A model generated the notes under the pieces. It had not been told where the DNA came from, ran no database searches, and saw only the letters and a program-made list of their open reading frames with translations. From assembly GCF_055900595.2 (NCBI RefSeq), contig NZ_CM148325.1: a stretch of DNA of 64,000 bases; one strand, 5' to 3'. Shown here piece by piece: positions 1 to 35,535 of the stretch (the stretch's first letter is position 1; each line of letters starts with the position of its first letter). The translations under genes were made by a program, and so were the position numbers.

Positions 1-387
1 ACAGAATGTGGATGTGGTCGTCGGGGATGCGTTGAAGCGGTTTCATCTGGTCGGGCCATCATGGGGGCAGCAAAAAATAAACTTGCAGGATATAGCACCA
101 AATATATTTTTGAATTAGCGAGACAGGGATATAAGGAAGCAGAATTTTTGACAGAGCGTTCTGCCAGTACTATTGCTGAATTAATAGTAAGTTTAAAATT
201 ACTGCTTGATTGTCAGGTTGTTGTTGTCGGAGGAAGTGTTGGACTTGCTGATGGGTATGTTCAGAAAGTGTCGAAACATCTTTCCATATATTCTGAAATT
301 TGTAATGTAATGCTGTTTCCGGCATATTTCAGAAGTGACTCTGGTCTTATTGGTGCAACTCTTTGGGACCGGGATTGTATTACTTAA
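1..387 (+). CDS. ROK-family sugar kinase, NanK-like (N-acetylmannosamine kinase); 5' end cut by window edge
   Basis: Frame open from base 1 (TECGCGRRGC ROK Cys motif precedes the listed Met); VVVVGGSVGLADGY resembles NanK C-terminus; directly upstream of NanT-like transporter. Confidence 0.6.
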   Translation, partial: TECGCGRRGCVEAVSSGRAIMGAAKNKLAGYSTKYIFELARQGYKEAEFLTERSASTIAELIVSLKLLLDCQVVVVGGSVGLADGYVQKVSKHLSIYSEICNVMLFPAYFRSDSGLIGATLWDRDCIT

Positions 388-435
388 AGTAATACTCCAG
401 TGTATTATAAATCCGCTATTATTGTGAGGTTTAAT

Positions 436-1908
436 ATGGACTCCTGTATTCAGAAAAAGCAGGTTTGGTATAAGCATCTTTCACCCAGACAGTGGAAGAT
501 ATTCGGTGCGGCATGGACAGGTTATTTACTTGATGGTTTTGATTTCGTTCTGATATCTCTGGTTCTTACAGAGGTTCAGCATGAATTCGGCTTGACGACA
601 ATAGAAGCGGCAAGCCTTATTTCCGCTGCTTTTATTTCTCGATGGTTTGGGGGGCTTGCTATTGGCGCTTTATCGGACAAGATGGGGCGCAGGATGGCAA
701 TGGTTTTAAGTATAGTGCTATTCTCTCTCGGAACCCTTGCCTGTGGTCTGGCTCCTGGATATGCAGTGATGTTTATTGCTCGCATTGTTATTGGGCTTGG
801 TATGGCAGGTGAATATGGCTCAAGTGTAACATATGTTATCGAAAGCTGGCCTGTTCATCTCAGAAACAAGGCAAGTGGTTTTTTAATTTCTGGATTTTCT
901 ATTGGGGGAGGTTTAGCTGCACAGGTTTATAGCATTGTAGTACCACTATGGGGCTGGCGTTCTCTTTTCTTTGTCGGCATGCTTCCAATATTATTTGCTT
1001 TTTATCTTCGCAAGAATCTTCCGGAGTCTGATGACTGGCAAAAAAGGCAACAAGAGAATAAACCCGTCAGAACAATGGTGGATATTCTGTACAGAGAAAA
1101 GAATAAATACATAAATATTCTTCTGTCTTGTATTGCATTTGCATGTCTATATGTTTGTTTTTCAGGCGTCACTGCAAACGCTGCTTTAATCACAGTTATG
1201 GCATTGTGCTGTGCGGCTGTTTTTATCAGTTTTATATATCAGGGTATGGGGAAAAGATGGCCAACAGGCATTATGTTGATGCTTGTGGTTATGTTCTGTT
1301 TCCTCTACGGATGGCCACTGCAGGCTTTTCTTCCTACATGGCTTAAGGTTGATATGCAGTATTCACCAGAAACTGTTGCTCTCATATTTATGCTGGCAGG
1401 TTTTGGCTCTGCAGCTGGAAGTTGTATAGGTGGTTTTATGGGGGACTGGCTTGGAACCCGAAAAGCATATGTTATATCACTTCTTATCGGTCAGCTTGTT
1501 ATTATCCCCGTTTTTCTTGTGGACCGGGACTATGTATGGTTACTTGGCCTTCTAATCTTTACTCAGCAGGTTTTTGGTCAGGGGATTGGTGCTCTGGTGC
1601 CGAAAATAATCAGTGGTTATTTTAATGTGGAGCAGCGTGCGGCAGGACTGGGGTTTATTTATAATGTAGGTTCACTTGGTGGAGCATGTGCGCCTATTCT
1701 TGGTGCAGTTGTTGCGTCTCATACAAGTCTTGGTACAGCAATGTGTTCTCTTGCTTTTATCTTAACATTTGTTGTTCTTGTCCTTATTGGTTTTGATATG
1801 CCATCACGTGTACAGAGATGGATCCATCCAGAAGCTGCGCTTGAATATGATACTGTCGATGGAAAACCTTTTTATGGAGCAAGAAAAAAGAATGTTGCAG
1901 AAGAATAA
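436..1908 (+). CDS. MFS sialic acid transporter, NanT/NanX family
   Basis: About 490 aa, 12+ TM MFS protein; long collinear similarity to E. coli NanT as recalled ([49 protein letters not shown]); ATG at 436 with GAGG 6 nt upstream (track ORF begins at an alternative start at 400). Confidence 0.85.
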
Positions 1909-1911
1909 CGG

Positions 1912-2742
1912 ATGCTATCAGGGAATAAAAAAATGATTCATTACAGGGAGAATATATATTCTCTTGATAATTATGAGCGTTACATAACTGACAGTTCGCT
2001 ATTTGAGAATACTGGCGATGGCATAATATATACAGGTATTGTGCCCCTTATTACAGTTGTTGAGCCTGTTGTATCTAATCAACATAGTGTGCTGATTATA
2101 CCTGGAGGTGGATACAGGAGGATTGTTTATGAAAGAGAGGGACTTGATGTTGGCAGATGGATAGCAGGTCAGGGATATACGGCATTTATTCTTTCTTACA
2201 GAATGCCCTCCGTTAATGGTTATTATTCCTTTGCAGATGCGAAGAATGCCCTGAACTTTATTTCTTACTGGGCCGGAATGTCGGAGAGAACATTTAAGAG
2301 TGTTGGATGTATGGGGTTTTCGGCAGGTGGTCATCTTGCTGGATATATTACTCATCTCCATTATGAGGAAGAGACTTCTGTGCGTCCTGACTGGATGGCT
2401 CTGATATATCCAGTTATATCTCTTGACAGGAGTATTGCTCATCAGGGATGCCGGAAACGTCTTCTGGATGCAGGTGAAAGTGAATATTCAGCCAGTCTTG
2501 AAAATAGTGTTACAGAGTATATGCCACCAGTCTTTATTGTGCATGCAACAGATGATAAGGATGTTCCAGTTATTCATTCTCTGAGATATTTTAACTCTAT
2601 TCGGGATAAGGGACATCATGCAGAAGCTCATTTTTTTGATAAGGGAGGTCATGGATTTGGTGTATCCGGAAAAAATGGATATCCGATAGAAAAATGGCAA
2701 AGCCTGCTTCTGGAATGGCTTGCGGAACATAAGTTTCATTGA
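1912..2742 (+). CDS. alpha/beta-hydrolase esterase (putative sialate/acetyl esterase), paralog 1
   Basis: PGGGY oxyanion-type motif and GFSAGGH nucleophile elbow; C-terminal HATDD..GGHGF; embedded in nan-like operon. Confidence 0.65.
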   Translation: MLSGNKKMIHYRENIYSLDNYERYITDSSLFENTGDGIIYTGIVPLITVVEPVVSNQHSVLIIPGGGYRRIVYEREGLDVGRWIAGQGYTAFILSYRMPSVNGYYSFADAKNALNFISYWAGMSERTFKSVGCMGFSAGGHLAGYITHLHYEEETSVRPDWMALIYPVISLDRSIAHQGCRKRLLDAGESEYSASLENSVTEYMPPVFIVHATDDKDVPVIHSLRYFNSIRDKGHHAEAHFFDKGGHGFGVSGKNGYPIEKWQSLLLEWLAEHKFH

Positions 2743-2787
2743 GAAATCAAATTACAAGTGATAAATATATTTAATGATGAGGCATTT

Positions 2788-3498
2788 ATGAAAAAATATT
2801 ATCCACTATTAACTGTAATTCTTCTTGGTTTACCTTTGTGCTCTCAGGCATTAACTCTTAATCTACGTGGGGGATACAGAAGCGCCAGTCACGCTTATGA
2901 AACGTTGATTCAGGTTAGTCAGGGGTGGAATAATGGTTGGTGGGCAAGTTTTGAGTCAAACACCTGGAATACAATTCACAACAATGAAAATGAATTGTTT
3001 GCACTCAATTATAATAAAATAGATATAAATAAAACATATAAAATAGATGACAAATGGGCTCTAATCCCAGGGATTCAGACACAATGGATGTCAGCAGGAA
3101 GTCAGTATAACCCTTATCTGAAAATTTCGTATCAGGCAACGCCAGATCTTAATCTGGCCTTACGCTATCGCTATGACTGGAAAGCTTTCCGACAGACGGA
3201 TTTAGATGGCAACAGGGCGCGTAATGATCAGCATCAGTTTGATGGTTATGTGACATACAAAATTAATGATTCATGGTTGTTTGCATGGCAGACCACGGTA
3301 TATACGAAGGTTAATAATTTCAAATATGGGAATCATAAAAAAACAGCAACTGAAAATGCATTTGTTCTGCAATATAAAATGTCACCGGTGTTCACCCCAT
3401 ATATAGAATATGATTACTTGGATAAACAAGGGGTGTATAAGGGGAAAGATAATAAACATGAAAATAGTTACCGTGTCGGTGTTCTGATTAATTTTTAA
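2788..3498 (+). CDS. nanC: NanC-like outer-membrane N-acetylneuraminic acid channel (KdgM porin family)
   Basis: About 236 aa, signal peptide MKKYYPLLTVILLGLPLCSQA, aromatic-rich beta-strand pattern, C-terminal ..YRVGVLINF; GAGG before ATG 2788. Confidence 0.75.
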   Translation: MKKYYPLLTVILLGLPLCSQALTLNLRGGYRSASHAYETLIQVSQGWNNGWWASFESNTWNTIHNNENELFALNYNKIDINKTYKIDDKWALIPGIQTQWMSAGSQYNPYLKISYQATPDLNLALRYRYDWKAFRQTDLDGNRARNDQHQFDGYVTYKINDSWLFAWQTTVYTKVNNFKYGNHKKTATENAFVLQYKMSPVFTPYIEYDYLDKQGVYKGKDNKHENSYRVGVLINF

Positions 3499-3501
3499 AA
3501 G

Positions 3502-4620
3502 GTGATTACAATGAAAGTGAAAAACTTTATATATCTTCCCTTCTGCTTGTTTATTGGAACGTCGGTAGCCGGAGCTTTACCGGAAATTCCTGAACCATTT
3601 AAATATGGTGTAGGAGGGATCGAGAATGGTAAAATATATATAGGACTAGGAAGTCTGGGAAATAACTGGTATATGATAGATACAAACCAGAGTGAAAAAA
3701 AATGGACTAAGATAGCGCAATGGCCGACAGTTCCCAGAGAGCAGGCAACAGCTACTATTATTGATGGTAAGATCTATGTATTTGGAGGAATTGGAAAAGA
3801 TAAAAGTGGAGTCATAACCTTACAAAAAGATGTCTATTCCTATGATATTGCTAAAGATAAATGGGAAAAATTGATGACCCGTCCTCCTGTATCTCTTGCC
3901 GGTCATGTTTCTTTTATCCATAATGGTCATGCGGTATCTACTGGTGGTGTAAATGAGAATATTTTTAATGGATACTTTTCAGATGTCGAGTTATCAAAAG
4001 GGAATTCCGCGCTGACAGAGAAAGTCAACAGGGATTATTTTAGTAAACCTGCTGATGATTATTTTTTAAATAATCATATAATTTCTTATGACCCGTCAAA
4101 AAACCAGTGGAAGAACCTGGGAACGACTCCATTTCCGGGAACTGCTGGTTCATCGGTGATTTTTGCAGAACAGCAAATTTATATACTGGGAGGGGAGAGA
4201 AAACCGGGGCTTCGTTCTGTTAGATCCTGGACGGGGGAGCTTTCGCATGATCGAATTAAATGGTCTGAACTTCCACCAGTAGCTTCACCCGAGGGGGTGT
4301 CAGGAGCATATGCCTCTGTTATTGATGGAAATATCTTTCTGGCCGGTGGTGCATATTTCCCGGGGGCGGCAGAAAAGTATAGCAATGGTGAATACTGGTC
4401 TCATAAAGGACTGGATAAAGCCTATTCAAAAGAGATATATCAGCTAATAAAAAATGACTGGAAAAAAGTTGGTTCTTTGCCGGAAGGACTTGCTTATGGT
4501 GTAAGCCTGCCCTGGCAGGGGGGGATGCTCATTCTGGGGGGGGAGAAAAAAGATGGTAAAGCTGTTTCAGATGTTATTTATCTGAAAAAAAATGACAAAC
4601 AAATAAAGATTGTTAAATAA
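3502..4620 (+). CDS. nanM: N-acetylneuraminate mutarotase/epimerase NanM (Kelch-repeat, YjhT family)
   Basis: Signal peptide plus repeated Kelch motifs (IYIGLG, IYVFGG, GHVSFIHNG, IYILGG, LILGGE); strong collinearity with E. coli NanM as recalled; start may be M at 3511. Confidence 0.85.
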   Translation: MITMKVKNFIYLPFCLFIGTSVAGALPEIPEPFKYGVGGIENGKIYIGLGSLGNNWYMIDTNQSEKKWTKIAQWPTVPREQATATIIDGKIYVFGGIGKDKSGVITLQKDVYSYDIAKDKWEKLMTRPPVSLAGHVSFIHNGHAVSTGGVNENIFNGYFSDVELSKGNSALTEKVNRDYFSKPADDYFLNNHIISYDPSKNQWKNLGTTPFPGTAGSSVIFAEQQIYILGGERKPGLRSVRSWTGELSHDRIKWSELPPVASPEGVSGAYASVIDGNIFLAGGAYFPGAAEKYSNGEYWSHKGLDKAYSKEIYQLIKNDWKKVGSLPEGLAYGVSLPWQGGMLILGGEKKDGKAVSDVIYLKKNDKQIKIVK

Positions 4621-4630
4621 CTGTAATGCA

Positions 4631-4665
4631 GGTGACTGTATTAGTTGTTCAGTCACCTGAGTTAT
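4631..4665 (+). terminator. stem-loop between nanM and downstream esterase gene
   Basis: Inverted repeat AGGTGACTG..CAGTCACCT followed by T-rich tract immediately after nanM stop. Confidence 0.4.
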
Positions 4666-4669
4666 TTTA

Positions 4670-5605
4670 ATGGGGTTTATAATGAATAAAGATAGATCTT
4701 TAAATGAAATGATGTTAAGCTTGTTTAATAAATCAACTATTGTTGACTTGTCAAGTGAGACAATATCTGAGAGTAAATCTCTTTCAGGCCGTATTTATCA
4801 GGATCCTGAACATAACGGGGAATTTGAACTTGATCGTGTATTGACAGATATTTATGCTCCTCAGTTAATTATTTTTTTACCAGATAAACCAAATGGAACA
4901 GGAATATTGATTATTCCCGGGGGGGGCTACCAGGCTGTTATGTTAGATAAGGAAGGTACAGCTCTTGCTCCAGAGTTTTTATCTCAGGGCTATACATTAT
5001 TTGTTCTTAGTTACAGATTACCATCGCCAGTTGAGGGAGAAAATATAAACAAAACTTTTATTGATGCAATATCTGCAATGCTTTATATTCGTAAGAATGC
5101 TGATAAATGGCATCTACAGCGTCATCGTATTGGTGTATTAGGATTTTCTGCTGGGGGGCATATCGCCTCAACGTTTGTGAATCAGATTTGTGATTTCAAA
5201 CGTTCTTCTGACAGTAAAGAACAAGAGATTTTCGCTATTCCCGATTTTGTCGGGTTAATTTATCCTGTAATATCAATGAAAGATGATGTGACACATCCAG
5301 GCTCCAGGAAGCAATTACTGGGGGACAATAGTACCTCAGAAAATATAATACAATATAGTGCGGATCTTAATGTCACATCATGTTTTCCTCCTGTGTTTTT
5401 ACTCCATTGTTGTGATGATGATCTTGTGTCAATTGAAAACAGTCTGCTCATGTACCGTGGCCTAATAGAGAAAGGCGTTTCTGCTGAAATGCATCTCTAT
5501 GAGAAAGGAGGGCATGGTTTTAGTATTCAGTGGGCCACAGATCTTTCTGTTGGAGGATGGATAAAACTGTTTATGGACTGGATGTATTCTCATGGATTTA
5601 AATAA
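4670..5605 (+). CDS. alpha/beta-hydrolase esterase, paralog 2
   Basis: Same motif architecture as 1912-2742 product (IIPGGGYQAV, GFSAGGH, EKGGHGF), diverged sequence. Confidence 0.65.
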   Translation: MGFIMNKDRSLNEMMLSLFNKSTIVDLSSETISESKSLSGRIYQDPEHNGEFELDRVLTDIYAPQLIIFLPDKPNGTGILIIPGGGYQAVMLDKEGTALAPEFLSQGYTLFVLSYRLPSPVEGENINKTFIDAISAMLYIRKNADKWHLQRHRIGVLGFSAGGHIASTFVNQICDFKRSSDSKEQEIFAIPDFVGLIYPVISMKDDVTHPGSRKQLLGDNSTSENIIQYSADLNVTSCFPPVFLLHCCDDDLVSIENSLLMYRGLIEKGVSAEMHLYEKGGHGFSIQWATDLSVGGWIKLFMDWMYSHGFK

Positions 5606-5640
5606 TATTTATGGTGACTACCTGGTGAAGCGTCGAGTAA

Positions 5641-6375
5641 CTATGATGCTTCAATTCGTTTATAAAGGTGATTATACATTAGCTGTTCAGCTTTATCACA
5701 ATCATGCTCTTTTATGGCCGTAAGTATTTCAATATGCTGCTGATGGGTTTTTTTGTTATTTTCATATGTCATTTTATTCTTTTCCAGAGGTTTGGCCATT
5801 ATCAGCCATTCAGAAAATGCTGAGTGTATTGTTTTTAATACTTTATTGTCAGGTATATCAGCAAGTATACTATGAAATTCAATATCATATTGAGCATACA
5901 CTTCGGGGGTTCTCAGTGAGTTATGATGGATACTGAGCACCTTCTCAAGCCTGTGAATATCCTCAGGCGTTGCATTTTTTGCTGCATATCTTACAAGGTT
6001 GGTTTCAAAAAAGATGCGTAGTCTTTCAAAATCCTTGATGCCATCAGCTGTAGATAAAAAATCTTTAACAATGCCTGATAACCCATTAATGATGGTTTCT
6101 GGTGATGGACGGCAGACACTGGCTTTTTCTCCCTTGTTATACCGGATTAGCCCTTTATGTCTGAGAGATGATAAAGCCTCTCTGACAGATGGTCTTCCAA
6201 CGCCAAAGAATGCCATAAGTTCACGTTCAGAAGGCAGGTATTCACCTTCCCTTATCTCCTCCTGGCGGATCATTCTTTCAAGCTCTTCGGCAACGATTTC
6301 TGAAAGTTTTTTTGTAACAATGGGCTTTCTGGTCGTTGTTAGCCCGGGTAACACGGTTTTTTTGTTGTCGGACAT
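5641..6375 (-). CDS. GntR/FadR-family transcriptional regulator, NanR-like
   Basis: N-terminal winged HTH (SERELMAFFGVGRPSVREALSSLRHKGLI) and FadR-type C-terminal domain; divergent from nanS. Confidence 0.75.
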   Translation of the reverse strand: MSDNKKTVLPGLTTTRKPIVTKKLSEIVAEELERMIRQEEIREGEYLPSERELMAFFGVGRPSVREALSSLRHKGLIRYNKGEKASVCRPSPETIINGLSGIVKDFLSTADGIKDFERLRIFFETNLVRYAAKNATPEDIHRLEKVLSIHHNSLRTPEVYAQYDIEFHSILADIPDNKVLKTIHSAFSEWLIMAKPLEKNKMTYENNKKTHQQHIEILTAIKEHDCDKAEQLMYNHLYKRIEAS

Positions 6376-6471
6376 ATATTGATTTATATGGATTAGAGCA
6401 AATGAGTTTTTAATTTAACACTTTCTTTTAATAATGAAAATATTTAATTAAATCTATTATGTAAAGGGGGA

Positions 6472-7461
6472 ATGATGTATCATCATGATTTTAATGAAAA
6501 AATAGGTTTCTGGTATGTGATAGCCCTCGCAGGACAGTCTAATGGTATGGCCTACGGTGAAGGTATTCCCCTGCCAGATACACTCGACAAACCCGAGTCC
6601 CGTGTAAAACAACTGGCTCGTCGAAAAACAATCACACCAGGAGGAAAAGAGTGTAAATTCAATGAGATTATTCCGGCAGATCACTGCCTGCATGATGTTC
6701 AGGATATGAGTGGATATCACCATCCGGCTGCTGATTTGCATAAAGGGGAATATGGTTGTGTCGGACAGGGATTGCATATAGCTAAAAAGTTACTGCCATA
6801 CATACCTGAGCAAGCAGGGATATTACTGGTTCCTTGTTGCAGAGGAGGTGCCGCCTTTACTGTTGGAGCTGAAGGTATGTATGTACCTGATACAGGGGCA
6901 ACAGCTGATGCAATGCGGTGGGGCACCGGAACAGCACTCTATGAGGACTTAGTAGCCCGGGTTAAGGTAGCTCTGGAATATAACAGAAAGAATAAACTGC
7001 TATCTGTCTGCTGGATGCAGGGGGAGTTTGATCTTATGTCACCAGATTATGAAAAGCATCCTGACTTGTTTTATCAGATGGTAACTTCTTTCAGGTCTGA
7101 GTTATCTGAATACTCATCTCAGTGTGTTGGTAATTCGTCAGAAAGAGTTCCATGGTTGTGTGGTGATACAACCTGGTACTGGAAGGAATCTTATCAAAAA
7201 GAATATGATTTTATATATGGACATTACAGACAACGGACTGATGATGAAATACATTTTCTCAGCTTTCAGGATAGTAACCGACATGAATTAACTAATGAGC
7301 CAGAAGAAGATGCCGATGATTTATCTGTCGGGTATCTGGGGTCATCATGGAGGACAGAATTAAGCTGGACAACGTCACAGAGAAGTACACATTTTAATTC
7401 AATGGCCAGAAGGGGAGTTATTGCTGAATGTTATGCGCAAAAAATAAGAAATTATTTGTAG
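6472..7461 (+). CDS. nanS: 9-O-acetyl-N-acetylneuraminate esterase NanS (SGNH/DUF303 family)
   Basis: ALAGQSNGMAYGEG catalytic Ser block near N-terminus; size about 329 aa as for YjhS/NanS. Confidence 0.8.
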   Translation: MMYHHDFNEKIGFWYVIALAGQSNGMAYGEGIPLPDTLDKPESRVKQLARRKTITPGGKECKFNEIIPADHCLHDVQDMSGYHHPAADLHKGEYGCVGQGLHIAKKLLPYIPEQAGILLVPCCRGGAAFTVGAEGMYVPDTGATADAMRWGTGTALYEDLVARVKVALEYNRKNKLLSVCWMQGEFDLMSPDYEKHPDLFYQMVTSFRSELSEYSSQCVGNSSERVPWLCGDTTWYWKESYQKEYDFIYGHYRQRTDDEIHFLSFQDSNRHELTNEPEEDADDLSVGYLGSSWRTELSWTTSQRSTHFNSMARRGVIAECYAQKIRNYL

Positions 7462-7612
7462 ACAAGTTCAGGATATATCTACAGCTCTGACATGATTCTC
7501 TGAGAGACATGACGGAGTGGTTAGACTGGCCCCCTGAATCTCCAGACAACCAATATCACTTAAATAAGTGATAGTCTTAATACTAGTTTTTAGACTAGTC
7601 ATTGGAGAACAG

Positions 7613-7978
7613 ATGATTGATGTCTTAGGGCCGGAGAAACGCAGACGGCGTACTACACAGGAAAAGATCGCTATCGTTCAGCAGAGCTTTGAACCGGGAA
7701 TGACGGTCTCCCTTGTTGCCCGGCAACATGGTGTGGCAGCCAGCCAGTTATTTCTCTGGCGTAAGCAATACCAGGAGGGAAGTCTTACTGCTGTGGCTGC
7801 CGGAGAACAGGTCGTTCCTGCCTCTGAACTTGCTGCCGCCATGAAGCAGATTAAAGAACTCCAGCGTCTGCTCGGCAAAAAAACGATGGAAAATGAACTC
7901 CTTAAAGAAGCCGTTGAATATGGGCGAGCAAAAAAGTGGATAGCGCACGCGCCCTTATTGCCCGGGGATGGGGAGTAA
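7613..7978 (+). CDS. insC: IS2 transposase OrfA
   Basis: [29 protein letters not shown].. matches IS2 InsC as recalled. Confidence 0.9.
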
Positions 7979-8841
7979 GCTTCGTCAGCCGTTGTCTCCG
8001 GGTGTCGCGTGCGCAGTTGCACGTCATTCTCAGACGAGCCGATGACTGGAAGGACGGCCGCCGCAGCCGTCACACGGATGATACGGATGTGCTTCGCCGT
8101 ATACACCATGTTATCGGAGAGCTACCCACATATGGTTATCGTCGGGTATGGGCGCTGCTTCGCAGACAAACAGAACTTGATGGTATGCCTGCGATCAATG
8201 CCAAACGTGTTTACCGGACCATGCGCCAGAATGCGCTGTTGCTTGAGCGAAAACCCGCTGTACCGCCATCGAAACGGGCACATACCGGCAGAGTGGCTGT
8301 GAAAGAAAGTAATCAGCGATGGTGCTCTGACGGGTTTGAGTTCCGCTGTGATAACGGAGAAAAACTGCGGGTCACGTTCGCGCTGGACTGCTGTGACCGT
8401 GAGGCACTGCACTGGGCGGTCACAACGGGTGGCTTCGACAGTGAAACAGTACAGGACGTCATGCTGGGAGCAGTGGAACGCCGCTTTGGCAGCGAGCTTC
8501 CGGCGTCTCCAGTGGAGTGGCTGACGGATAATGGTTCATGCTACCGGGCGAATGAAACACGTCAGTTCGCCAGGATGTTGGGACTTGAACCGAAGAACAC
8601 GGCAGTGCGGAGTCCGGAGAGTAACGGAATAGCAGAGAGCTTCGTGAAAACGATAAAGCGTGACTACATAAGTATCATGCCCAAACCAGACGGGTTAACG
8701 GCAGCAAAGAACCTTGCAGAGGCGTTCGAGCATTATAACGAATGGCATCCGCATAGTGCGCTGGGTTATCGCTCGCCACGGGAATATCTGCGGCAGTGGG
8801 CCAGTGATGGGTTAAGTGATAACAGGTGTCTGGAAATATAG
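7936..8841 (+). CDS. insD: IS2 transposase OrfB
   Basis: 301 aa, DDE integrase fold; matches IS2 InsD as recalled. Confidence 0.9.
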
Positions 8842-9267
8842 GGGCAAATCCATTGTCAGCACCAACAATGTGGGCTGACATGATAAAGCTGTCTAGGAAA
8901 TCGTTCGCCTCCTCAGCGGACAATCCAAATGGTGATTGTCTCTGTTAAACGTTTATTTTGAAGGTCGACTGAATAAGGTGATGACGCTGTAGAATTTTTC
9001 ACGTGCCACAGAATTTTGAACGCTTTCTCTTACAATATTTCAATGTTTCTATCAGTATTCGCCGGAAGAAGTCATCGACCAAATCATCCCAGTCGTCTCG
9101 CACCACTGACCATTCATGGTTGACATGTGGTGGAAATCCGCTTCTACAGTAACCATTTTTTATTCGCAAAACCGAACACGCCATACGGATAGCTGTTAAC
9201 TGGCATGCCGAGGCAGTCGTTATTTATATTTAGTTTTGTCAATAATCTTTATTTTTTGTAAAAGGCA

Positions 9268-9340: not shown

Positions 9341-11431
9341 ATGCGAATAACCACTCTGGCTTCCGTAGTCATTCCCTGTCTCGGATTTTCAGCCAGCAGC
9401 ATAGCTGCTGCAGAGGATGTGATGATTGTCTCTGCATCCGGCTATGAGAAAAAGCTGACTAACGCAGCCGCCAGTGTTTCTGTGATTAGCCAGGAGGAAT
9501 TGCAGTCCAGCCAGTACCACGATCTGGCGGAGGCTCTGAGATCAGTAGAGGGTGTGGATGTTGAAAGTGGTACGGGTAAAACCGGTGGGCTGGAAATCAG
9601 CATCCGAGGAATGCCAGCCAGTTACACGCTGATACTGATTGATGGTGTTCGTCAGGGCGGAAGCAGTGACGTGACTCCCAACGGTTTTTCTGCCATGAAT
9701 ACCGGGTTCATGCCCCCTCTGGCCGCCATTGAGCGTATTGAGGTTATCAGGGGGCCGATGTCCACACTGTATGGCTCTGATGCGATGGGCGGTGTGGTGA
9801 ATATCATTACCAGAAAGAATGCAGACAAATGGCTCTCTTCCGTCAATGCAGGGCTGAATCTGCAGGAAAGCAACAAATGGGGTAACAGCAGCCAGTTTAA
9901 TTTCTGGAGCAGTGGTCCCCTTGTGGATGATTCTGTCAGCCTGCAGGTACGCGGTAGCACACAACAGCGTCAGGGCTCATCGGTCACATCACTGAGCGAT
10001 ACAGCAGCCACGCGTATTCCTTATCCCACGGAGTCACAGAATTATAATCTTGGTGCACGTCTTGACTGGAAGGCGTCGGCGCAGGATGTGCTCTGGTTTG
10101 ATATGGATACCACCCGGCAGCGTTATGATAACCGGGATGGGCAACTGGGGAGTCTGACGGGGGGATATGACCGGACCCTGCGCTATGAGCGAAACAAAAT
10201 TTCAGCTGGCTATGATCATACTTTCACCTTCGGAACATGGAAATCGTATCTGAACTGGAACGAGACAGAAAATAAAGGTCGTGAGCTCGTACGCAGTGTA
10301 CTGAAGCGCGACAAATGGGGGCTTGCCGGTCAGCCGCGGGAGCTTAAGGAATCGAACCTTATCCTGAATTCATTACTGCTTACCCCTCTGGGAGAATCTC
10401 ATCTGGTTACGGTGGGGGGCGAGTTTCAGAGCTCGTCCATGAAAGACGGAGTTGTCCTTGCCAGCACAGGTGAAACTTTCCGGCAGAAAAGCTGGTCGGT
10501 ATTTGCTGAGGATGAGTGGCATCTCACGGATGCACTTGCGCTGACTGTGGGCAGCCGCTATGAACATCATGAGCAATTCGGGGGACACTTCAGTCCGCGT
10601 GCATATCTGGTCTGGGATGTGGCAGATGCCTGGACGCTGAAAGGCGGTGTGACCACGGGATATAAGGCACCCAGAATGGGGCAGCTACATAAAGGGATTA
10701 GTGGTGTATCCGGGCAGGGAAAAACAAATCTACTTGGTAACCCCGACCTGAAGCCGGAAGAGAGCGTCAGTTATGAGGCTGGGGTGTATTACGATAACCC
10801 CGCCGGTCTGAATGCCAATGTCACAGGTTTTATGACTGACTTCTCCAACAAGATTGTCTCTTATTCCATAAATGATAACACCAATAGCTATGTAAACAGC
10901 GGAAAGGCCCGGTTGCATGGTGTGGAATTTGCCGGCACATTGCCGCTGTGGTCAGAGGATGTCACGCTGTCACTGAATTACACCTGGACCCGAAGTGAAC
11001 AACGTGATGGTGATAACAAAGGTGCGCCGCTGAGTTATACCCCTGAACACATGGTGAATGCGAAACTGAACTGGCAGATCACCGAAGAGGTGGCATCATG
11101 GCTGGGTGCCCGTTATCGCGGGAAAACACCACGTTTCACCCAGAATTATTCGTCACTGAGCGCTGTACAGAAGAAAGTGTATGATGAGAAAGGAGAATAC
11201 CTGAAAGCTTGGACGGTGGTGGATGCAGGTCTGTCGTGGAAGATGACGGATGCCCTGACGCTGAATGCTGCGGTGAATAACCTGCTCAACAAGGATTACA
11301 GTGACGTGAGCCTGTACAGTGCCGGTAAGAGTACGCTGTATGCCGGTGATTACTTCCAGACGGGATCATCAACAACAGGATATGTGATACCTGAGCGAAA
11401 TTACTGGATGTCGCTGAACTATCAGTTCTGA
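9341..11431 (+). CDS. iha: IrgA-homologue adhesin / TonB-dependent outer-membrane siderophore receptor Iha
   Basis: 696 aa, signal peptide, plug plus 22-strand barrel, C-terminal ..WMSLNYQF; N-terminus MRITTLASVVIPCLGFSASSIAAAEDVMIV matches Iha as recalled. Confidence 0.9.
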   Translation: MRITTLASVVIPCLGFSASSIAAAEDVMIVSASGYEKKLTNAAASVSVISQEELQSSQYHDLAEALRSVEGVDVESGTGKTGGLEISIRGMPASYTLILIDGVRQGGSSDVTPNGFSAMNTGFMPPLAAIERIEVIRGPMSTLYGSDAMGGVVNIITRKNADKWLSSVNAGLNLQESNKWGNSSQFNFWSSGPLVDDSVSLQVRGSTQQRQGSSVTSLSDTAATRIPYPTESQNYNLGARLDWKASAQDVLWFDMDTTRQRYDNRDGQLGSLTGGYDRTLRYERNKISAGYDHTFTFGTWKSYLNWNETENKGRELVRSVLKRDKWGLAGQPRELKESNLILNSLLLTPLGESHLVTVGGEFQSSSMKDGVVLASTGETFRQKSWSVFAEDEWHLTDALALTVGSRYEHHEQFGGHFSPRAYLVWDVADAWTLKGGVTTGYKAPRMGQLHKGISGVSGQGKTNLLGNPDLKPEESVSYEAGVYYDNPAGLNANVTGFMTDFSNKIVSYSINDNTNSYVNSGKARLHGVEFAGTLPLWSEDVTLSLNYTWTRSEQRDGDNKGAPLSYTPEHMVNAKLNWQITEEVASWLGARYRGKTPRFTQNYSSLSAVQKKVYDEKGEYLKAWTVVDAGLSWKMTDALTLNAAVNNLLNKDYSDVSLYSAGKSTLYAGDYFQTGSSTTGYVIPERNYWMSLNYQF

Positions 11432-29773: not shown

Positions 29774-31051
29774 CTAGGTGCCGCTGCGCCACTGAATCAG
29801 GGCGGGCGGCATACTGAGATCGAATAAATCACGTCCCATTACGCGATTAAGAATACGTGCAGATCTCCATGCCATCAGGCTGAGCTGGGGTTCGGCGATG
29901 CCATGGGTTTGCATACTGGCGTTGACCACGAAGATGTTGTTCTCTTTCGGGCCACTCCATTCCAGAGTGAAGTCATCACGCACTTTAAAGGTGTTCTTAT
30001 CGTGCATGGTGATCAGGGGCATCAGTGAGGGAAGTATTTGTGGCAACGCAGAACGGTAACCTGTGGCGAAAATCACCACATCACTTTCCAGGCTCTCCCT
30101 GCCCTGATCCAGATGATGCTCCATCAGCAACTTCCAGCCAGGACCACTACTTTCCAGAGTTGTTACCGAGCGGCTGGGTAGCAGACGGATATTTCTTGGT
30201 TTTCTCAGAACTTCAAAACGGTGGTACAACTCACGATAAATGGTCAGTAAAGAATCGGCAGTGATGCCATCCGATGTCATTTTCTGCTCATCCAGTAACT
30301 GATGGCGAATATCTTCCTCCAGTCCGGAGAAGCCTGAAATATATTCAGGTGTAAAATACTCATCAGCAAAAGCAGCCTCATCCAGTGCGTTAAAATTATT
30401 ACGCCGGGAGACCCAGTTTATTTCCGCCGCTTCTCCCCATTCCCCGCGTAATGCATTAAGGAACAGGTCTGCACCACTCTGTCCTCCACCAACCACGGTT
30501 ATCCGTTTTCCACTAAGGTCCGGCCGACGAAGATTCATTTCACTGGCATGGAAACAGGATTGTGTCATATGCTTCACACAGGGTGGTAAATAAGGTTGTT
30601 TTCCTGTACCAAGGCAGATATTGCGGGCAAAATATTCTCCCTGGCTGGTTTGCACCAGAAACAATCGACGTTTTTTATCGAAATCAATGTTTTCAACGGT
30701 ATGACTGAAATACAGGTTATTCATATCTTCAGCAGCCCAGCGGAGGTAGTCAGAAAACTCTTCACGGGATACTGTACGTAGTCTGCTTGTAAGGAAGCGA
30801 TAGAACTTTTTGTGCTTCACCAGATAGTTAACAAAACTGTAGGGATTTGTAGGTGCAACAGCACTGACCAGATCTTTCAGAAAGACGGTCTGCATATGAC
30901 AATCCGGTACCAGCATACCCGGATGCCAGGAAAAATGAGGATGTTCATCAAAGAAGAGACAGTCCAGTTCTTCGATCTGATGTGACAACGCAGCAATGCT
31001 GAGATTAAATGGCCCTGTCCCTACACCAATAAAATCGACACTTTTTTTCAT
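29774..31051 (-). CDS. iucD: L-lysine N6-monooxygenase IucD
   Basis: FAD/NADPH motifs (GVGTGPFNLS, VVGGGQSGAD); overlaps iucC stop by 4 bp. Confidence 0.9.
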   Translation of the reverse strand: MKKSVDFIGVGTGPFNLSIAALSHQIEELDCLFFDEHPHFSWHPGMLVPDCHMQTVFLKDLVSAVAPTNPYSFVNYLVKHKKFYRFLTSRLRTVSREEFSDYLRWAAEDMNNLYFSHTVENIDFDKKRRLFLVQTSQGEYFARNICLGTGKQPYLPPCVKHMTQSCFHASEMNLRRPDLSGKRITVVGGGQSGADLFLNALRGEWGEAAEINWVSRRNNFNALDEAAFADEYFTPEYISGFSGLEEDIRHQLLDEQKMTSDGITADSLLTIYRELYHRFEVLRKPRNIRLLPSRSVTTLESSGPGWKLLMEHHLDQGRESLESDVVIFATGYRSALPQILPSLMPLITMHDKNTFKVRDDFTLEWSGPKENNIFVVNASMQTHGIAEPQLSLMAWRSARILNRVMGRDLFDLSMPPALIQWRSGT

Positions 31052-32790
31052 GATTCATATTCCTGAGTTACCAGCCACAGCGGATTTTGCAGATCCTCAA
31101 GGTAATTCGGCAGCATGCGGCTGCCGCCATCCAGATCAGGCCAGGTCAGTTTTACCGGGTTCAGCACCACGCGAATGATTTGTGGCCTGAAAAGTGAGAA
31201 AAGCGCAAAACGCTCTGACATTTGTGGATGTTTTTTCATGTAATCACTCAACACTGCTGCCAGCAGTTGATAAAATCGCCTTTCAGGTACGCCAAGACGA
31301 ACCATCAGTGGCGAAATAAAACGCAGTACTGTCACGAAGTGACCCGTCTGCAAATCATGGATTAAGTAGTCCGCACTCAGGCGGGATGTAACATCACGAA
31401 CCTCCTGAGGCAAAGAGTCCATTTCGGGGAACTCTTCTTTCACCAGTCGCATATCGCCCTGGAAGTCTTTCAGCAGAACACGCTGTGGAACCCCCTCTTT
31501 CATGGCGAGAGTTATATTTTGTCCATGTGCAATAAGCGCGACACCGTAGCGGCAAAGCAGGTGATACAGAGGAACCACGACCACCCGGAACAGTTGCGTA
31601 AGCCAGGTTTCAGCGTCCAGCCCGGAGCGGTCTATATATGCGCCTGCCAGCGGCTGATTGTTTTCGTCGCACTCCATCAGTGTTGCCATCAGAACCGGAC
31701 TTTCATCCGGTTTCAGCCAGCGGCACGGATTCTCCCGCCAGATAACACCAAGCATTTCCTGGTAGCGATAGGGAGCCCGGGCAAGCGCGGCATAGCCTTC
31801 ATGGGAGACATAGCCTGCAGCCGGTTCACCAAGTATCACTGCGCCGCTTTGCACTAGGGTGGCGTCGGTCGCAAAAACCTGTTGTAGCCAGCGTGAAGCC
31901 AGTGGTCCGGCAGCGATGTATCTGCCAGGGATCCCCCGGTAGCATGAGGTGTTGTAGATGGTCAGCGGCAGCTTGATATCCAGCCCGCCCCGGCGACTGG
32001 CGTTGGTCAGGGTACGCAGCGACTGCTGGGCGAGCCACTGGTCGCCAAACTCGCCGAGAGACACCATCCTGCCTTCGGCAAAATCAGCGATGAAGTCGGT
32101 AGCGATTTTTTGCTGCCACTGCCACGGATGTACCGGCAGCGGCAGCCAGTTGTGATCCAGTCCGTTTTCCTGCCAGACCTGACTGAAGCGTGTAAACTCC
32201 TGCGGATCCATTGCGGCAGTCAACAACTGCTGAATATCCAGATCGTTATCGCAGCGCCAGATCATATGTTCACGTTTTACCGCCAGCCAGTGCAGTCTGA
32301 AGGTGTTGGTATACTCTGGCGCATATCGTTCCAGCGCCTCTTTGCCCCAGCCACGGCGACCTTTATTAAAAACGAATTTAGGATGACCGCTCAGCAAGCA
32401 TTGCAGACGATCGGCATCAAGATTAATCAGGTCACTGGCACTCAGTCCGCGACGGGCCTTCAGCAGTTGCAGGTCGCCCAGTAGCGTGGCATACAAATCC
32501 TGCATATGCTCTGCAACAGTGGCATCACTCATTGACAGCACCGGCTTTAGCTGCATCAGCAGCGTCTGCGCCAGTACTGGTTCGTCCGTGCAGCGCAACG
32601 TTTGGGCATCAATCCACAGCCAGCCCCAGATACCACGTTCAGCGATGAAGCGCCATTGTGCTCCCGGCAGGTTAATGCAGTAGTGGTCATCGCCCTGAGA
32701 TTCCGCGTGGAAAACCTGCTCATACTCCATCTCAGACAACATTTTTGCCACCAGCCGACGGTTAACAAAATCCCAGTCCTTGTGATTCAT
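31048..32790 (-). CDS. iucC: aerobactin synthetase IucC (NRPS-independent siderophore synthetase)
   Basis: 580 aa IucA/IucC-family protein in iucABCD order. Confidence 0.9.
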   Translation of the reverse strand: MNHKDWDFVNRRLVAKMLSEMEYEQVFHAESQGDDHYCINLPGAQWRFIAERGIWGWLWIDAQTLRCTDEPVLAQTLLMQLKPVLSMSDATVAEHMQDLYATLLGDLQLLKARRGLSASDLINLDADRLQCLLSGHPKFVFNKGRRGWGKEALERYAPEYTNTFRLHWLAVKREHMIWRCDNDLDIQQLLTAAMDPQEFTRFSQVWQENGLDHNWLPLPVHPWQWQQKIATDFIADFAEGRMVSLGEFGDQWLAQQSLRTLTNASRRGGLDIKLPLTIYNTSCYRGIPGRYIAAGPLASRWLQQVFATDATLVQSGAVILGEPAAGYVSHEGYAALARAPYRYQEMLGVIWRENPCRWLKPDESPVLMATLMECDENNQPLAGAYIDRSGLDAETWLTQLFRVVVVPLYHLLCRYGVALIAHGQNITLAMKEGVPQRVLLKDFQGDMRLVKEEFPEMDSLPQEVRDVTSRLSADYLIHDLQTGHFVTVLRFISPLMVRLGVPERRFYQLLAAVLSDYMKKHPQMSERFALFSLFRPQIIRVVLNPVKLTWPDLDGGSRMLPNYLEDLQNPLWLVTQEYES

Positions 32791-33737
32791 TACAGACCGA
32801 CCTCCGTGAAGAAGTGATGACGATCCGCCATCACCATGCGCGAGCGCTTATGTGGGAAGTCGAACTCTTTAATTGTCCGGTATCCCGCAGGCTCAAGATG
32901 GCGGAACAGGCGCAGGTTATCGGTGCGTGGCTCCAGTACTGTGCGCTGCGTACGGGGCTCATCCAGCAGCAGGTAATGTGTCAGCCCGCGCAGCCAGCTT
33001 TGCACATAGTGGGCCCCGCGCCATTGCTGTTCACCAACCAGCAGATGCAGGCCACGGTCAAAGGGCTGCCACGAATAGTGACGACCAATGCGGTCTTCCG
33101 CCGCCCAGTAGATTTCGAAATAGCTGAATGGCCGATCGTCGAAGCACCCAATCAGCGGGAATGCATGTTTACCGGTGAGCTGGCGCTCCAGATAGGCGGT
33201 CTGTACCTCCAGTGAGCCACTTTGCTCCCAGAAATACTCAACGCGCGGATCATTCATCCAGCGGGTGAAACGTTCTGCATCAGAAACGGGATCGGCAATG
33301 CGGAAACTCAGCATCCTGCGAATACGTGGATCGTAACGGCGGTAAACCTCACCCTGTGGACGGGGTGGGCGCTGCGGGAAATAAATCTCACGCTCTGCAT
33401 CAAAAACCATTTCACCGGAGGCCCGGTTTGCCGGTGAACTCAACCATAACGGTAACTGCCAGAAGGCAGTACGATGGATAATGTCGCTTTTTACCTGCCC
33501 AAAAAGCGTCAGCGCCTGTGGCTCCTCACGCCATTCGGCCCAGGGGAGAGCCACTGCTGACAGTTGTGGAGCGGCGATAAATATCTGATCCAGCGCATCG
33601 CACAGCCACCCTGTCGGCAGCTCCCCGGGACAGTGCAACACCGCGCTATTGTCCAGTCCCCAGCCAAGATTCAGGGGCTTGTCGAGTTTTTCACAGCGCA
33701 GTCCATATCTGCTGTGAATAATGTTTGCCTCAGACAT
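32790..33737 (-). CDS. iucB: N6-hydroxylysine acetyltransferase IucB
   Basis: 315 aa, acetyltransferase in conserved operon position between iucA and iucC. Confidence 0.9.
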   Translation of the reverse strand: MSEANIIHSRYGLRCEKLDKPLNLGWGLDNSAVLHCPGELPTGWLCDALDQIFIAAPQLSAVALPWAEWREEPQALTLFGQVKSDIIHRTAFWQLPLWLSSPANRASGEMVFDAEREIYFPQRPPRPQGEVYRRYDPRIRRMLSFRIADPVSDAERFTRWMNDPRVEYFWEQSGSLEVQTAYLERQLTGKHAFPLIGCFDDRPFSYFEIYWAAEDRIGRHYSWQPFDRGLHLLVGEQQWRGAHYVQSWLRGLTHYLLLDEPRTQRTVLEPRTDNLRLFRHLEPAGYRTIKEFDFPHKRSRMVMADRHHFFTEVGL

Positions 33738-35462
33738 TCAGACCTCCTGAGCCTGCAGCGGGTTAGCGAAATCGAAATAGATCACCGAAGGGTCAACAAT
33801 GGTGTTCTCGTTATGATCGTTCAGATAACAGAAAAAGTTACCTTTTACGTTCCAGTACGGACTTTCCAGCACGTAGTTGAGACAGGTTTTATGAGTCACC
33901 TGATCACGCACTTCAGCCAGCGATGCTCGTACACGAGCCATCAGATTCGATTCGCTGTCCAGCCCGGCAGCCCCCAGCGCAGCGGTCACAGCAAAAGTGG
34001 AGTTAACCAGCAGGTAATAAGGGAAATAGCGCAGCAACTGCTCATGGGTGAAAATATTTTCCGCCTGCGCCTCGCCAATAGAATCGAGCCAGTCTGTCGC
34101 GTGAGGCATAAAAGCGCTGCCCTGACAGTCACGGTAAATAAATCCGACCGGCAGATCCCCAAGCATCTGGACAAGAATATTTTGCTGATGCGCCAGCAGC
34201 ACCAGGCCGTAATCCGCTTCAGCCGTAAACAGCGGCTTTAGCACTTGCTGACAGTATGCATCGACCCATGCATGGGCGGCCTGTTGCACAGTGATACCGA
34301 GGCGATCGCTCAGGCGTTTTACCGCCGAAACCAGCAGCGAATCACCGCCATCAGGTGCGGCCTGAGTCAGGGAGACCAGTACGTTAGTCTGGCTTTTCGG
34401 CTGATCCACCAGCAGATTTTCACGCAGGGCAAACAGACTTTCCTGCATGATGTTGCCGTTAAGATCGCGCAGCCCGGCCCAGCCATCCTCCTGCATTACC
34501 CGGAAAGTCGGGAAGCGGACCTGTAGCATCTGCCAGCCGTCGGTTTGAGCCAGGCGTGCCAGGCGCATCCCACGCTTCACTTCTTTCACGGACAGAGTAC
34601 GGATGGAGTTGGTCAGCCGTACGCTCAGGGAGAACTTGATCATATCGCGGCTGGTGGCACAGTAGAGGGAACGGGAAGAGGTGGTCGGCAGCCACGACGT
34701 GCCGGCCTCACCTAAGTCTTTAATCAGCCCTTTAGCAACAAGTGCCTGGCACCACCCCTGCTGCAAAAGATATTCCCCCTGCCACGGGTGCAACGGGAAC
34801 AGCCATTGGTTGTCACTTAATTCGTTGAGTAACTGAGGCGCATTCTCTGCGGCAAATCGCGTCAGCCGCTGTTGAAGGTTGAGATGCAAACTTTCACCGG
34901 CGATTTGCGTTTTATCCACCGAAAACCACCGCAGTGGGAAGTGGGGTGCCATATCAGGCAGGTAGCGTTCAGCCTCCCGCCGGTTAAACGGTTCATGAGA
35001 CTTAGGCGCAGGGTGGAAAGCGTGTCCTGTCAGCAGCGCCTGCTCAGCCTCGCCAAAATTCAACGCTTTTTCACGCAGAGCGGCCCAGTCATGACGGGCA
35101 TCAATTGCCTGTTGCGTATGGACATGGCTTTCCAGCACGCGCTGGTGGAAAGTTTCGCAGAGGGGAACGGGCAGAAACAGTTGATGGCGTAGCTTATCAA
35201 TAATAAGCCGGGAGAGAGTGGTAAAGTCGACAGGATAACTGCCTGATGCCGTGACCAGACGTGCAGGAAATGCAAAGCGGTGATGCTGGGTTGGGGAGAA
35301 ATAAGCCACTCTGAAATGGAGCGATTTCTGCTCATCCAGCGGGATGAGCAATTCGTCTGGCGGGTATTCTGTCAGTTTCCAGTCTGTGGTTTCACGAATC
35401 AGTGCATTCAGGAAGCACTGCGCAGCCACATCTGTGGCTGGTTTTTCAGAGGGCAGGGTCAT
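33738..35462 (-). CDS. iucA: aerobactin synthetase IucA
   Basis: Matches IucA from MTLPSEKPATDVAAQCF.. onward; the 21 codons upstream in the track ORF lie in the AT-rich promoter/Fur-box region. Confidence 0.9.
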   Translation of the reverse strand: MTLPSEKPATDVAAQCFLNALIRETTDWKLTEYPPDELLIPLDEQKSLHFRVAYFSPTQHHRFAFPARLVTASGSYPVDFTTLSRLIIDKLRHQLFLPVPLCETFHQRVLESHVHTQQAIDARHDWAALREKALNFGEAEQALLTGHAFHPAPKSHEPFNRREAERYLPDMAPHFPLRWFSVDKTQIAGESLHLNLQQRLTRFAAENAPQLLNELSDNQWLFPLHPWQGEYLLQQGWCQALVAKGLIKDLGEAGTSWLPTTSSRSLYCATSRDMIKFSLSVRLTNSIRTLSVKEVKRGMRLARLAQTDGWQMLQVRFPTFRVMQEDGWAGLRDLNGNIMQESLFALRENLLVDQPKSQTNVLVSLTQAAPDGGDSLLVSAVKRLSDRLGITVQQAAHAWVDAYCQQVLKPLFTAEADYGLVLLAHQQNILVQMLGDLPVGFIYRDCQGSAFMPHATDWLDSIGEAQAENIFTHEQLLRYFPYYLLVNSTFAVTAALGAAGLDSESNLMARVRASLAEVRDQVTHKTCLNYVLESPYWNVKGNFFCYLNDHNENTIVDPSVIYFDFANPLQAQEV

Positions 35463-35502
35463 AGTCAAACAGCTCCCACACAGCAAAATAATAACAATTA
35501 TG

Positions 35503-35535
35503 TCAATAATGATTCTCATTATCAATAATAAATGT
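35503..35535. promoter_or_regulatory. Fur box / iron-regulated promoter of iucABCD-iutA (divergent from shiF)
   Basis: CAATAATGATTCTCATTATCAATAATAA closely matches Fur consensus, about 45-70 bp upstream of iucA start. Confidence 0.65.

Follow-up and report, generated by a model that had tools for sequence, protein, structure and literature searches.

A mobile accessory nan module of Escherichia coli, shared by a pathogenicity island, IncF plasmids and Proteus, with two predicted alpha/beta-hydrolase esterases

The sialic acid genes of Escherichia coli K-12 are organized in two separate operons, nanATEK-yhcH and nanCMS, which together with nanR make up its sialoregulon. A further set has been described from the GI-pheV pathogenicity island as its 'nan module', a segment of 8905 bp flanked by insertion sequences (IS) that is 99.6-99.7% conserved among the islands of uropathogenic E. 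coli (UPEC) and is described there as the island's most conserved module and treated as one for 'sialic acid catabolism', with CFT073, EC958 and the pandemic clone ST131 as carriers (PLoS Genet 2024, PMC11537424). We have analysed a stretch of 64,000 nucleotides (contig NZ_CM148325.1 of NCBI RefSeq assembly GCF_055900595.2), referred to here as the window, of which positions 1-7461 had been described in a sequence-only reading as an accessory sialic acid locus carrying two extra esterase genes. This segment covers the 3' seven-eighths of an accessory nan locus of nine genes, and the locus is already known, being the same DNA as the GI-pheV nan module; in the retrieved text of PMC11537424 nothing is said of esterases or hydrolases, of plasmid or Proteus versions, or of an operator in connection with the module. 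The two esterase genes, designated ABH1 and ABH2 (for alpha/beta hydrolase), are, on the comparative evidence given below, ancient and conserved parts of the module. What appears to be undescribed so far in the searchable literature is the presence of two BD-FAE-type esterases, together with a distinct NanT subfamily, in an ancient mobile nine-gene cassette which has a conserved candidate operator of its own and is common to GI-pheV, IncF plasmids and Proteus. Two 'short' nanS copies had already been counted in CFT073 (Vimr 2013 review, PMC3658417); among the UPEC transcriptome and transposon-sequencing papers found there was nothing on the nan module, and a sialic acid biosensor preprint makes no mention of a second NanR.

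Compared with the K-12 sialoregulon, the module encodes homologues of NanA (66% identity), NanK (53%), NanT (66%), NanC (61%), NanM (44%), NanR (52%) and NanS (56%), and at 44-66% identity these proteins are old paralogues of their K-12 counterparts, not recent copies. In place of two operons there is one compact nine-gene unit, in the order nanA2-nanK2-nanT2-ABH1-nanC2-nanM2-ABH2, then nanR2 on the opposite strand and nanS2, followed by IS2. The module further differs from K-12 in lacking nanE and nanQ, in having two additional alpha/beta-hydrolase genes, in its G+C content of about 39% and in its mobility, being found in the island, on plasmids and in Proteus. Gene calls agree across an open reading frame (ORF) map, NCBIfam, Pfam and the PGAP annotation of the identical stretch in strain Nissle 1917 (locus L001), and give the following features in window coordinates:

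1-387, plus strand: 3' end of nanK2, an N-acetylmannosamine kinase paralogue (NCBIfam NanK profile, PGAP)
436-1908, plus strand: nanT2, a transporter of the sialate:H+ symporter family in the major facilitator superfamily (MFS) (NCBIfam NF003024, 829 bits, cutoff 604)
1912-2742, plus strand: ABH1, a BD-FAE-type alpha/beta-hydrolase esterase of 276 aa (Pfam BD-FAE, Abhydrolase_3, Peptidase_S9)
2788-3498, plus strand: nanC2, a KdgM-family outer-membrane channel (61% identity to K-12 NanC; PGAP KdgM family)
3511-4620, plus strand: nanM2, a sialate mutarotase (NCBIfam NF010730, 499.5 bits, cutoff 416)
4629-4659, plus strand: hairpin with a 10 bp stem between nanM2 and ABH2, and after it a short T-rich tract (RNA fold)
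4670-5605, plus strand: ABH2, a BD-FAE-type alpha/beta-hydrolase esterase of 311 aa (Pfam BD-FAE, Abhydrolase_3)
5626-5653, no strand assigned: terminator-like hairpin where ABH2 and nanR2 converge (consensus scan, pattern match only)
5641-6375, minus strand: nanR2, a GntR/FadR-family NanR-type regulator (NCBIfam NF003011, 273 bits, cutoff 260)
6475-7461, plus strand: nanS2, a SASA/SGNH-type sialate O-acetylesterase paralogue (Pfam SASA; PDB 3PT5)
7522-8852, plus strand: IS2, the module boundary on the 3' side (95.8% identity over 1241 nt to K-12 IS2A)

All of the genes that the sequence-only reading had named were thus recovered by ORF map, NCBIfam and Pfam, as was the adjoining IS2. Its description of a near-complete nan system holds in that a lyase gene, nanA2, also exists, outside the window, and needs qualification in that nanE and nanQ are missing. 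No nanE was present in the PGAP annotation of the island module or in the Pfam gene lists of two plasmid-type versions, K-12 NanE gave no listed tblastn match in the loci searched (which included the island-type contig L010 and both Proteus loci), and nanQ was absent from every module version examined; the pathway must therefore rely on chromosomal nanE.

The window opens inside nanK2, since the part within it (C-terminal 108 aa, 61-387) aligns only to positions 186-289 of the 291 in the NanK profile, the start of the gene lying 488 nt upstream of the window. With NF003461, full-length NanK2 (L001 11512-12387) reaches 420 bits (cutoff 283), and with a stricter equivalog it falls below the cutoff (385 against 450). 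NanA2 (L001 10561-11478) scores 449 bits against 281 and keeps S47, T48, Y110, Y137, the Schiff-base lysine K165, T167, G189, D191, E192 and S208 of E. coli NanA, F252L being the sole difference among the active-site residues checked. NanS2 matches the NanS structure 3PT5 at E = 9e-125, and its GQSN block (AGQSNGMAYGEG) with the nucleophile Ser and its C-terminal SxHF (STHF) with the catalytic His align with K-12 NanS. The flanking IS2 has two ORFs, of 136 and 301 aa, and PGAP annotates an IS3-family transposase with a programmed frameshift there.

ABH1 and ABH2 share 37% identity (E = 2e-50). That they are paralogous hydrolases foreign to the canonical nanCMS operon, as had been suggested, is borne out: both contain the PGGGY and GFSAGGH motifs and match Pfam BD-FAE (PF20434; 8e-20 for ABH2, 8e-7 for ABH1) as well as Abhydrolase_3, and K-12 nanCMS has no such gene. 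With NanS2, which is of the SASA/SGNH type, the locus does hold three esterases of two folds. The best solved relatives of both hydrolases are 6A6O (E = 1e-32 for ABH1 and 1.5e-35 for ABH2) and 7DWC, and an AlphaFold model of ABH2 (pLDDT 90.3, pTM 0.92) has as its top structural matches 6A6O, an acetyl ester-xyloside hydrolase of C. lactoaceticus, 7DWC, which is BTAxe1 of B. thetaiotaomicron, and short-chain carboxylesterases. Their best NCBIfam matches are the PaeX pectin acetylesterase equivalog NF041902 (254 bits for ABH2 and 168 for ABH1, with a cutoff of 550) and the AxeA1 acetylxylan esterase equivalog NF042968 (157 and 136 bits, with a cutoff of 700), both far under the cutoff.

The predicted catalytic residues are Ser137, Asp214/215 and His247 in ABH1 and Ser160, Asp249/250 and His282 in ABH2, the PGGG oxyanion loop of the latter being P83-G85; the Ser/Asp/His triad and PGGG are invariant in alignments of 27 and 40 sequences which include all eight module esterases. 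Next to these positions the two clades carry invariant residues of their own, GGGYQAVM versus GGGYRR beside the oxyanion loop, HCCDD.LV versus H[AS][TI]DD.DV beside the Asp, and HGF.[IV]QW versus HGFG.S beside the His, as would be expected if both enzymes are active and their pockets differ. Signal peptides are present in NanC2 (a hydrophobic N-terminus ending CSQA) and NanM2, and no signal peptide was found in ABH1, ABH2 or NanS2 of any version, ABH1 also lacking an N-terminal hydrophobic segment; ABH1 and ABH2 are predicted to be cytoplasmic. The Bacteroidota relatives of the hydrolases do carry signal peptides.

ABH1 and ABH2 share Pfam family, fold and catalytic motifs with BD-FAE (PMC8165983), BTAxe1, the 6A6O enzyme and Dickeya PaeX, and the likeness would extend to chemistry on carbohydrate O-acetyl or short-chain esters. 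Those enzymes have plant xylan or pectin substrates, are often exported and belong to plant-polysaccharide loci, whereas the module hydrolases are predicted to be cytoplasmic, form clades of their own and were found only in nan modules. NanS2 is a clear member of the NanS/NanS-p group (SASA/SGNH, 3PT5), and the reaction proposed for ABH1 and ABH2 would be of the same kind, but their fold, that of an alpha/beta hydrolase with a Ser-Asp-His triad, is unrelated to that of NanS. In some E. coli assemblies ABH1 is represented by truncated forms of 156 aa (P0123 and P0125; 47% coverage, 90-100% identity), which could mean that the gene has become a pseudogene in certain lineages, or that the assemblies are fragmented.

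The age of the two genes can be judged by their distribution. A homologue search covering 5.8 billion protein clusters placed close relatives of ABH1 and ABH2 (46-57% identity) in only three places besides the island, with the whole module in each, so that four versions can be compared:

GI-pheV island of E. coli: nanA2-first order (the window and L001)
Chromosome of Proteus faecis, L011: island gene order with nanK missing; 99% nucleotide identity to metagenome contig L004
Conjugative IncF plasmids of E. coli: located between finO and repA (for example NZ_CP145711.1)
Fourth version, on short contigs of E. coli: next to a ParE/RelB pair (Pfam gene list)

In PLSDB, the ABH2 type of the IncF version is carried by 18 E. 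coli plasmids (H27-H44), the hosts being mice in several cases (apparently a single study, as the accession numbers are adjacent) and pigs and humans in others. The plasmid-type order is ABH2, nanR (opposite strand), nanS, nanA, nanK, nanT, ABH1, nanC, nanM, and the two plasmid-type versions (L005/L006, L020/L021 and L027) are exact circular permutations of the chromosomal order seen in the window, L001 and L011, which suggests capture via a circular intermediate or different IS cut points. A contig scan for further versions, which used two peptide patterns only and could have missed more diverged ones, added one genuine species, Proteus faecis, and otherwise picked up mis-binned contigs of E. 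coli.

Between versions, dS (the synonymous divergence) exceeds 1.2, and is thus saturated, for every gene, so all of the genes are equally old. Protein identity between versions is nevertheless uneven, at 89-92% for NanT, 78-87% for NanC, 71-86% for NanR, 69-82% for NanA, 60-76% for NanS, 55-76% for NanM, 54-67% for NanK and ABH2, and 43-63% for ABH1. Recent recombination as the source of this unevenness (NanT at 90% against ABH1 at 47%) is ruled out by the saturation of dS in every gene, and given their uniform age the differences reflect constraint; the ratio of non-synonymous to synonymous divergence (dN/dS) is 0.13-0.21 for ABH2 and 0.18-0.48 for ABH1. The spread within this one operon of uniform age is considerable, dN being 0.05-0.09 for NanT2 versus 0.25-0.58 for ABH1; the transporter, porin and regulator are nearly frozen, and NanM, NanK, ABH1 and ABH2 drift. 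NanT2 is at least 88% identical among module versions and then drops to at most 67% for the canonical NanT of all Enterobacterales; by this measure it is a distinct and very conserved NanT subfamily, found only with the module.

In a neighbour-joining tree the four ABH1 sequences form one clade (99 of 100 bootstraps) and the four ABH2 sequences another (100 of 100), the two being sisters in 84 of 100. Since each gene forms its own clade across the four versions, both were already present in the common ancestor of the module. Their positions in the operon are conserved, with spacers around them of 3-60 bp. The next-closest relatives are chromosomal singletons of Cronobacter and other enterobacteria, and homologues in Vibrio, in Bacteroidota and at a locus with GH43, TRAP and UxaC genes; those of Cronobacter, Kluyvera and Vibrio were considered as further nan-linked members and rejected, their gene neighbourhoods not being nan. 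As the closest non-module relatives lack nan linkage, the link to nan genes is specific to the ABH1 and ABH2 clades. One ABH2 allele (P0001, 98%) was also considered as a recombinant and rejected, since its locus differs from the window by only 16 scattered, unclustered single-nucleotide polymorphisms over 7.5 kb.

The regulation of the module offers a second line of evidence. In K-12 the nanA promoter combines a CRP site with NanR boxes of the GGTATA type, arranged as three direct repeats. The sequence-only reading had proposed a search for NanR-type repeats upstream of the NanK-like gene; no canonical triple GGTATA operator is present upstream of nanA2 or in the nanR2-nanS2 spacer, and what comparison of the four module versions brings out upstream of nanA2 is a conserved 19 bp palindrome with two half-sites. 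It has the consensus TGGTGTACTAGGTAT(A/C)CCA and precedes the nanA2 start by 28-54 bp, and the island copy, TGGTGTACTAGGTATCCCA (L001 10514-10532, some 1.47 kb before the first base of the window), is a candidate operator consisting of a palindrome of two GGTATA-like boxes at 9 bp spacing. A CRP-like site, (T/C)(T/G)TGA-N6-TCACA, is found 54.5 bp upstream of the operator, centre to centre, in all four versions, the same layout as at the K-12 promoter.

Each permuted version has a further copy of the motif, TGGTATGCTTAGTATACCA in one and TGGTATACTAAGCACTCCA in the other, directly upstream of ABH2, which there carries a putative operator of the same type as the one at the nanA2 promoter. The island ABH2 instead follows nanM2 after the stable hairpin at 4629-4659 (-20.9 kcal/mol, z = -3.7 versus shuffles), a possible attenuator or mRNA stabilizer. 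Because the hydrolase genes have been retained in the same operon positions through four versions of saturated divergence, and because a putative NanR-type operator lies upstream of ABH2 in the permuted versions, we conclude that they belong to the sialic acid system. The plasmid version alone has an operator-like sequence, TGGTATTTTAAATAAACCA (one mismatch), in the ABH1-nanC spacer (L005 17154-17172), and the two plasmid-type versions share another conserved stretch, GATCTTGCCATATATACA, in the nanR2-nanS2 spacer. In a consensus promoter and terminator scan, which is the source of the hairpin at 5626-5653 (L001 17626-17653), matches were no commoner than in shuffled sequence.

What the hydrolases do in such a system can be approached from the known limits of NanS, which removes O-acetyl groups from C7, C8 and C9 of sialic acids, but not from C4, to or from which O-acetyl groups do not migrate (PMC8319020). 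Sialic acids with 4-O-acetyl, di-O-acetyl and tri-O-acetyl substitution are abundant in the mouse gut (reviews; PMC10017367), and further sialate-modifying esterases of E. coli, for methyl-ester and lactyl forms, have been predicted (PMC3658417). We think it probable, though by no means assured, that the module is a self-contained mobile 'front end' for sialic acid use which widens the range of usable forms, with ABH1 and ABH2 supplying ester specificities that NanS lacks; these would most likely be for 4-O-acetyl or other acyl or ester forms. Free sialic acids would enter through the porin NanC2, be anomerized by the periplasmic mutarotase NanM2 and be imported by the symporter NanT2; in the cytoplasm NanS2, ABH1 and ABH2 would strip the ester substituents, NanA2, with its canonical active site, would cleave the resulting N-acetylneuraminic acid (Neu5Ac), and NanK2 would phosphorylate the N-acetylmannosamine (ManNAc), ManNAc-6-P being handed to the chromosomal NanE, NagA and NagB for completion. 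Expression would be from the CRP-dependent promoter upstream of nanA2, with NanR2 repressing at the palindrome. We infer all of these biochemical steps, the compartment and the substrates; the placing of de-esterification in the cytoplasm follows from taking at face value the lack of signal peptides in ABH1, ABH2 and NanS2, and it follows in turn that NanT2 would have to import acylated sugars.

The retro-aldol cleavage of sialic acid by the lyase needs a free 4-OH. With NanS sparing C4 and no acetyl migration there, C4 is the most interesting candidate target, and on the scheme just outlined a 4-O-acetyl group must block the lyase. We know of no bacterial enzyme that removes 4-O-acetyl. A bolder version, which we hold only tentatively and consider doubtful, is that ABH1 and/or ABH2 would be the first bacterial esterases for sialic acid esters beyond NanS, founding a third, BD-FAE-type class, and that NanT2 would be specialized for acylated forms; the target would then most likely be 4-O-acetyl, or else 9-O-lactyl, a C1 methyl ester or a lactone. 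O-acetylation is the host's main protection of its sialic acids, and blooms of E. coli in the inflamed gut are driven by sialic acid that is set free there. If the proposal is true, carriers of GI-pheV or of the IncF plasmids would gain a pool of sialic acids closed to other E. coli, and the action of the hydrolases would account for the module being better conserved than any other part of the pheV island.

There are precedents for parts of this scheme. Streptococcus pneumoniae Axe and EstA are alpha/beta-type esterases that act on O-acetyl sialic acids (PMC8319020), and as such show that enzymes of this type can serve in sialic acid foraging, albeit in another organism and compartment. The mannan esterases of Roseburia show that a single locus can hold two esterases whose regiospecificities complement each other (10.1101/788067). 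The module hydrolases are of the BD-FAE type; the two pneumococcal enzymes belong, we presume, to different families, CE7 and esterase D.

Several points weigh against the front-end proposal. The carriage of acylated sialic acids by NanT2 has to be assumed, the Vimr model places NanS in the periplasm (PMC3658417), and non-classical export of NanS, if real, would weaken the logic of the compartments. Of the module's genes ABH1 is under the least constraint, no NanR2-type operator is recognizable in the nanR2-nanS2 spacer (window 6376-6474), ahead of nanS2, in any version, and no biochemical or genetic work on ABH1 or ABH2 was found in the searchable literature. Finally, the nearest characterized relatives of the hydrolases act on acetyl esters of plant xylan or pectin, so that homology taken alone does in part point to an unrelated pathway, the outcome that the sequence-only reading had named as damaging to its proposal; in our view gene context overrides it.

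For the multiply or unusually O-acylated sialic acids that the sequence-only reading had suggested as substrates, at least two alternatives fit equally well, O-acetyl-ManNAc formed by the lyase and plain overlap with NanS. Of the other explanations, the one that survives best, although we regard it as unlikely, is that the hydrolases act after the lyase: NanA2 would turn Neu5,9Ac2 and similar forms into O-acetyl-ManNAc (for example 6-O-acetyl-ManNAc), from which the esterases would free ManNAc. Its premise is that 6-O-acetyl-ManNAc would not be phosphorylated at O6 by NanK2, as the chemistry of the reaction, with its requirement for a free 6-OH, would imply. The predicted cytoplasmic location of both hydrolases, their sharing of one operon with lyase and kinase, and a fold class whose nearest structures are acetyl or short-chain carboxylesterases with small substrates are all consistent with it. 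However, NanS-type esterases already take off 9-O-acetyl before cleavage (PMC8319020), and the Proteus version keeps both hydrolases with no nanK in the module.

The hydrolases could also be redundant with NanS, that is, ordinary 7/8/9-O-acetylesterases that add capacity or robustness and no new specificity, in which case the finding would amount to a refinement of annotation. E. coli commonly has more than one copy of nanS (Table 3, PMC3658417), and the pneumococcal Axe and EstA show that alpha/beta-type enzymes can work on sialic acids with O-acetyl groups (PMC8319020). At least one lineage should have lost a copy that was redundant, yet all three esterase genes are kept in all four versions, and the two hydrolase genes, about 35-40% identical, have each held to their own clade-specific active-site residues. 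As these residues and all three esterases have been kept through saturating divergence, distinct roles for ABH1 and ABH2 are indicated, and we consider redundancy quite unlikely.

That the hydrolases are hitch-hiking acetylesterases for plant oligosaccharides (xylan or pectin), unrelated to sialic acid, is very unlikely in our judgement. PaeX and AxeA1 are indeed their best profile matches, a more distant member of the family sits beside GH43, TRAP-transporter and UxaC genes, and Dickeya paeX, as we take it, adjoins the porin gene kdgM, a relative of nanC. The PaeX and AxeA1 scores are far under the cutoffs, though, no version contains a glycoside hydrolase or an oligosaccharide transporter, and the conserved positions within the operon, the NanR-type operator before ABH2 in the permuted versions and the confinement of both clades to nan modules all argue for a role with the nan genes. 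An action as amidases or N-deacylases on the N-acyl group, for instance of N-glycolylneuraminic acid (Neu5Gc) or ManNAc, has in its favour that some alpha/beta hydrolases of the hormone-sensitive lipase type are amidases, and is extremely unlikely given that all close structural and sequence relatives are O-esterases and that the NanA2 pocket is canonical and accepts the N-acetyl group.

The module is widespread. At least 80% of window 1-7600 is held by 688 of 5426 complete E. coli genomes, about one in eight, among them the probiotic Nissle 1917 and the asymptomatic-bacteriuria strain ABU 83972; the strains with 100.0% identity over the segment include Nissle 1917 (a single base differs), ABU 83972, an O25:H4 clinical isolate and 'clone D'. 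In the O25:H4 strain CU568-3 (NZ_CP082775.1) it matches in two pieces that span 10.3 kb, and the ISCro1 (IS66-like) transposase annotated there marks an IS insertion within the module. The GI-pheV nan module is also present at 99-100% identity in contigs L009 ('Collinsella sp.', GTDB) and L010 ('Bacillota bacterium') of metagenome-assembled genomes assigned to Gram-positive bacteria, which are almost certainly mis-binned E. coli DNA.

The position at the edge of the island that had been read from the sequence proves to be the boundary of the window: the module lies inside the island, 43-52 kb from pheV in Nissle, where the DNA directly upstream of the window holds the remainder of nanK2, then nanA2, IS66-family remnants and more island DNA. 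Colinearity of the window with Nissle as far as pheV was considered and rejected, as ARAGORN found no tRNA gene in window 1-64000; since, in addition, none of the complete genomes in the collection matches over 80% of window 40000-64000 at a single site, the arrangement of the island departs from that of Nissle beyond the first 19.6 kb or so. An ORF of 421 aa at 50255-51520 on the minus strand is annotated as an integrase in the best matching records. A second IS2, at about 36893-38223 on the minus strand, is inverted relative to that at 7522-8852, both being about 96% identical to K-12 IS2A, and the pair brackets about 28 kb with iha (9341-11431), sat (22649-26548), iutA and iucDCBA (27491-35525) and a shiF-like MFS gene (35598-36791). 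This arrangement looks like a composite transposon, and the whole virulence block could move or invert.

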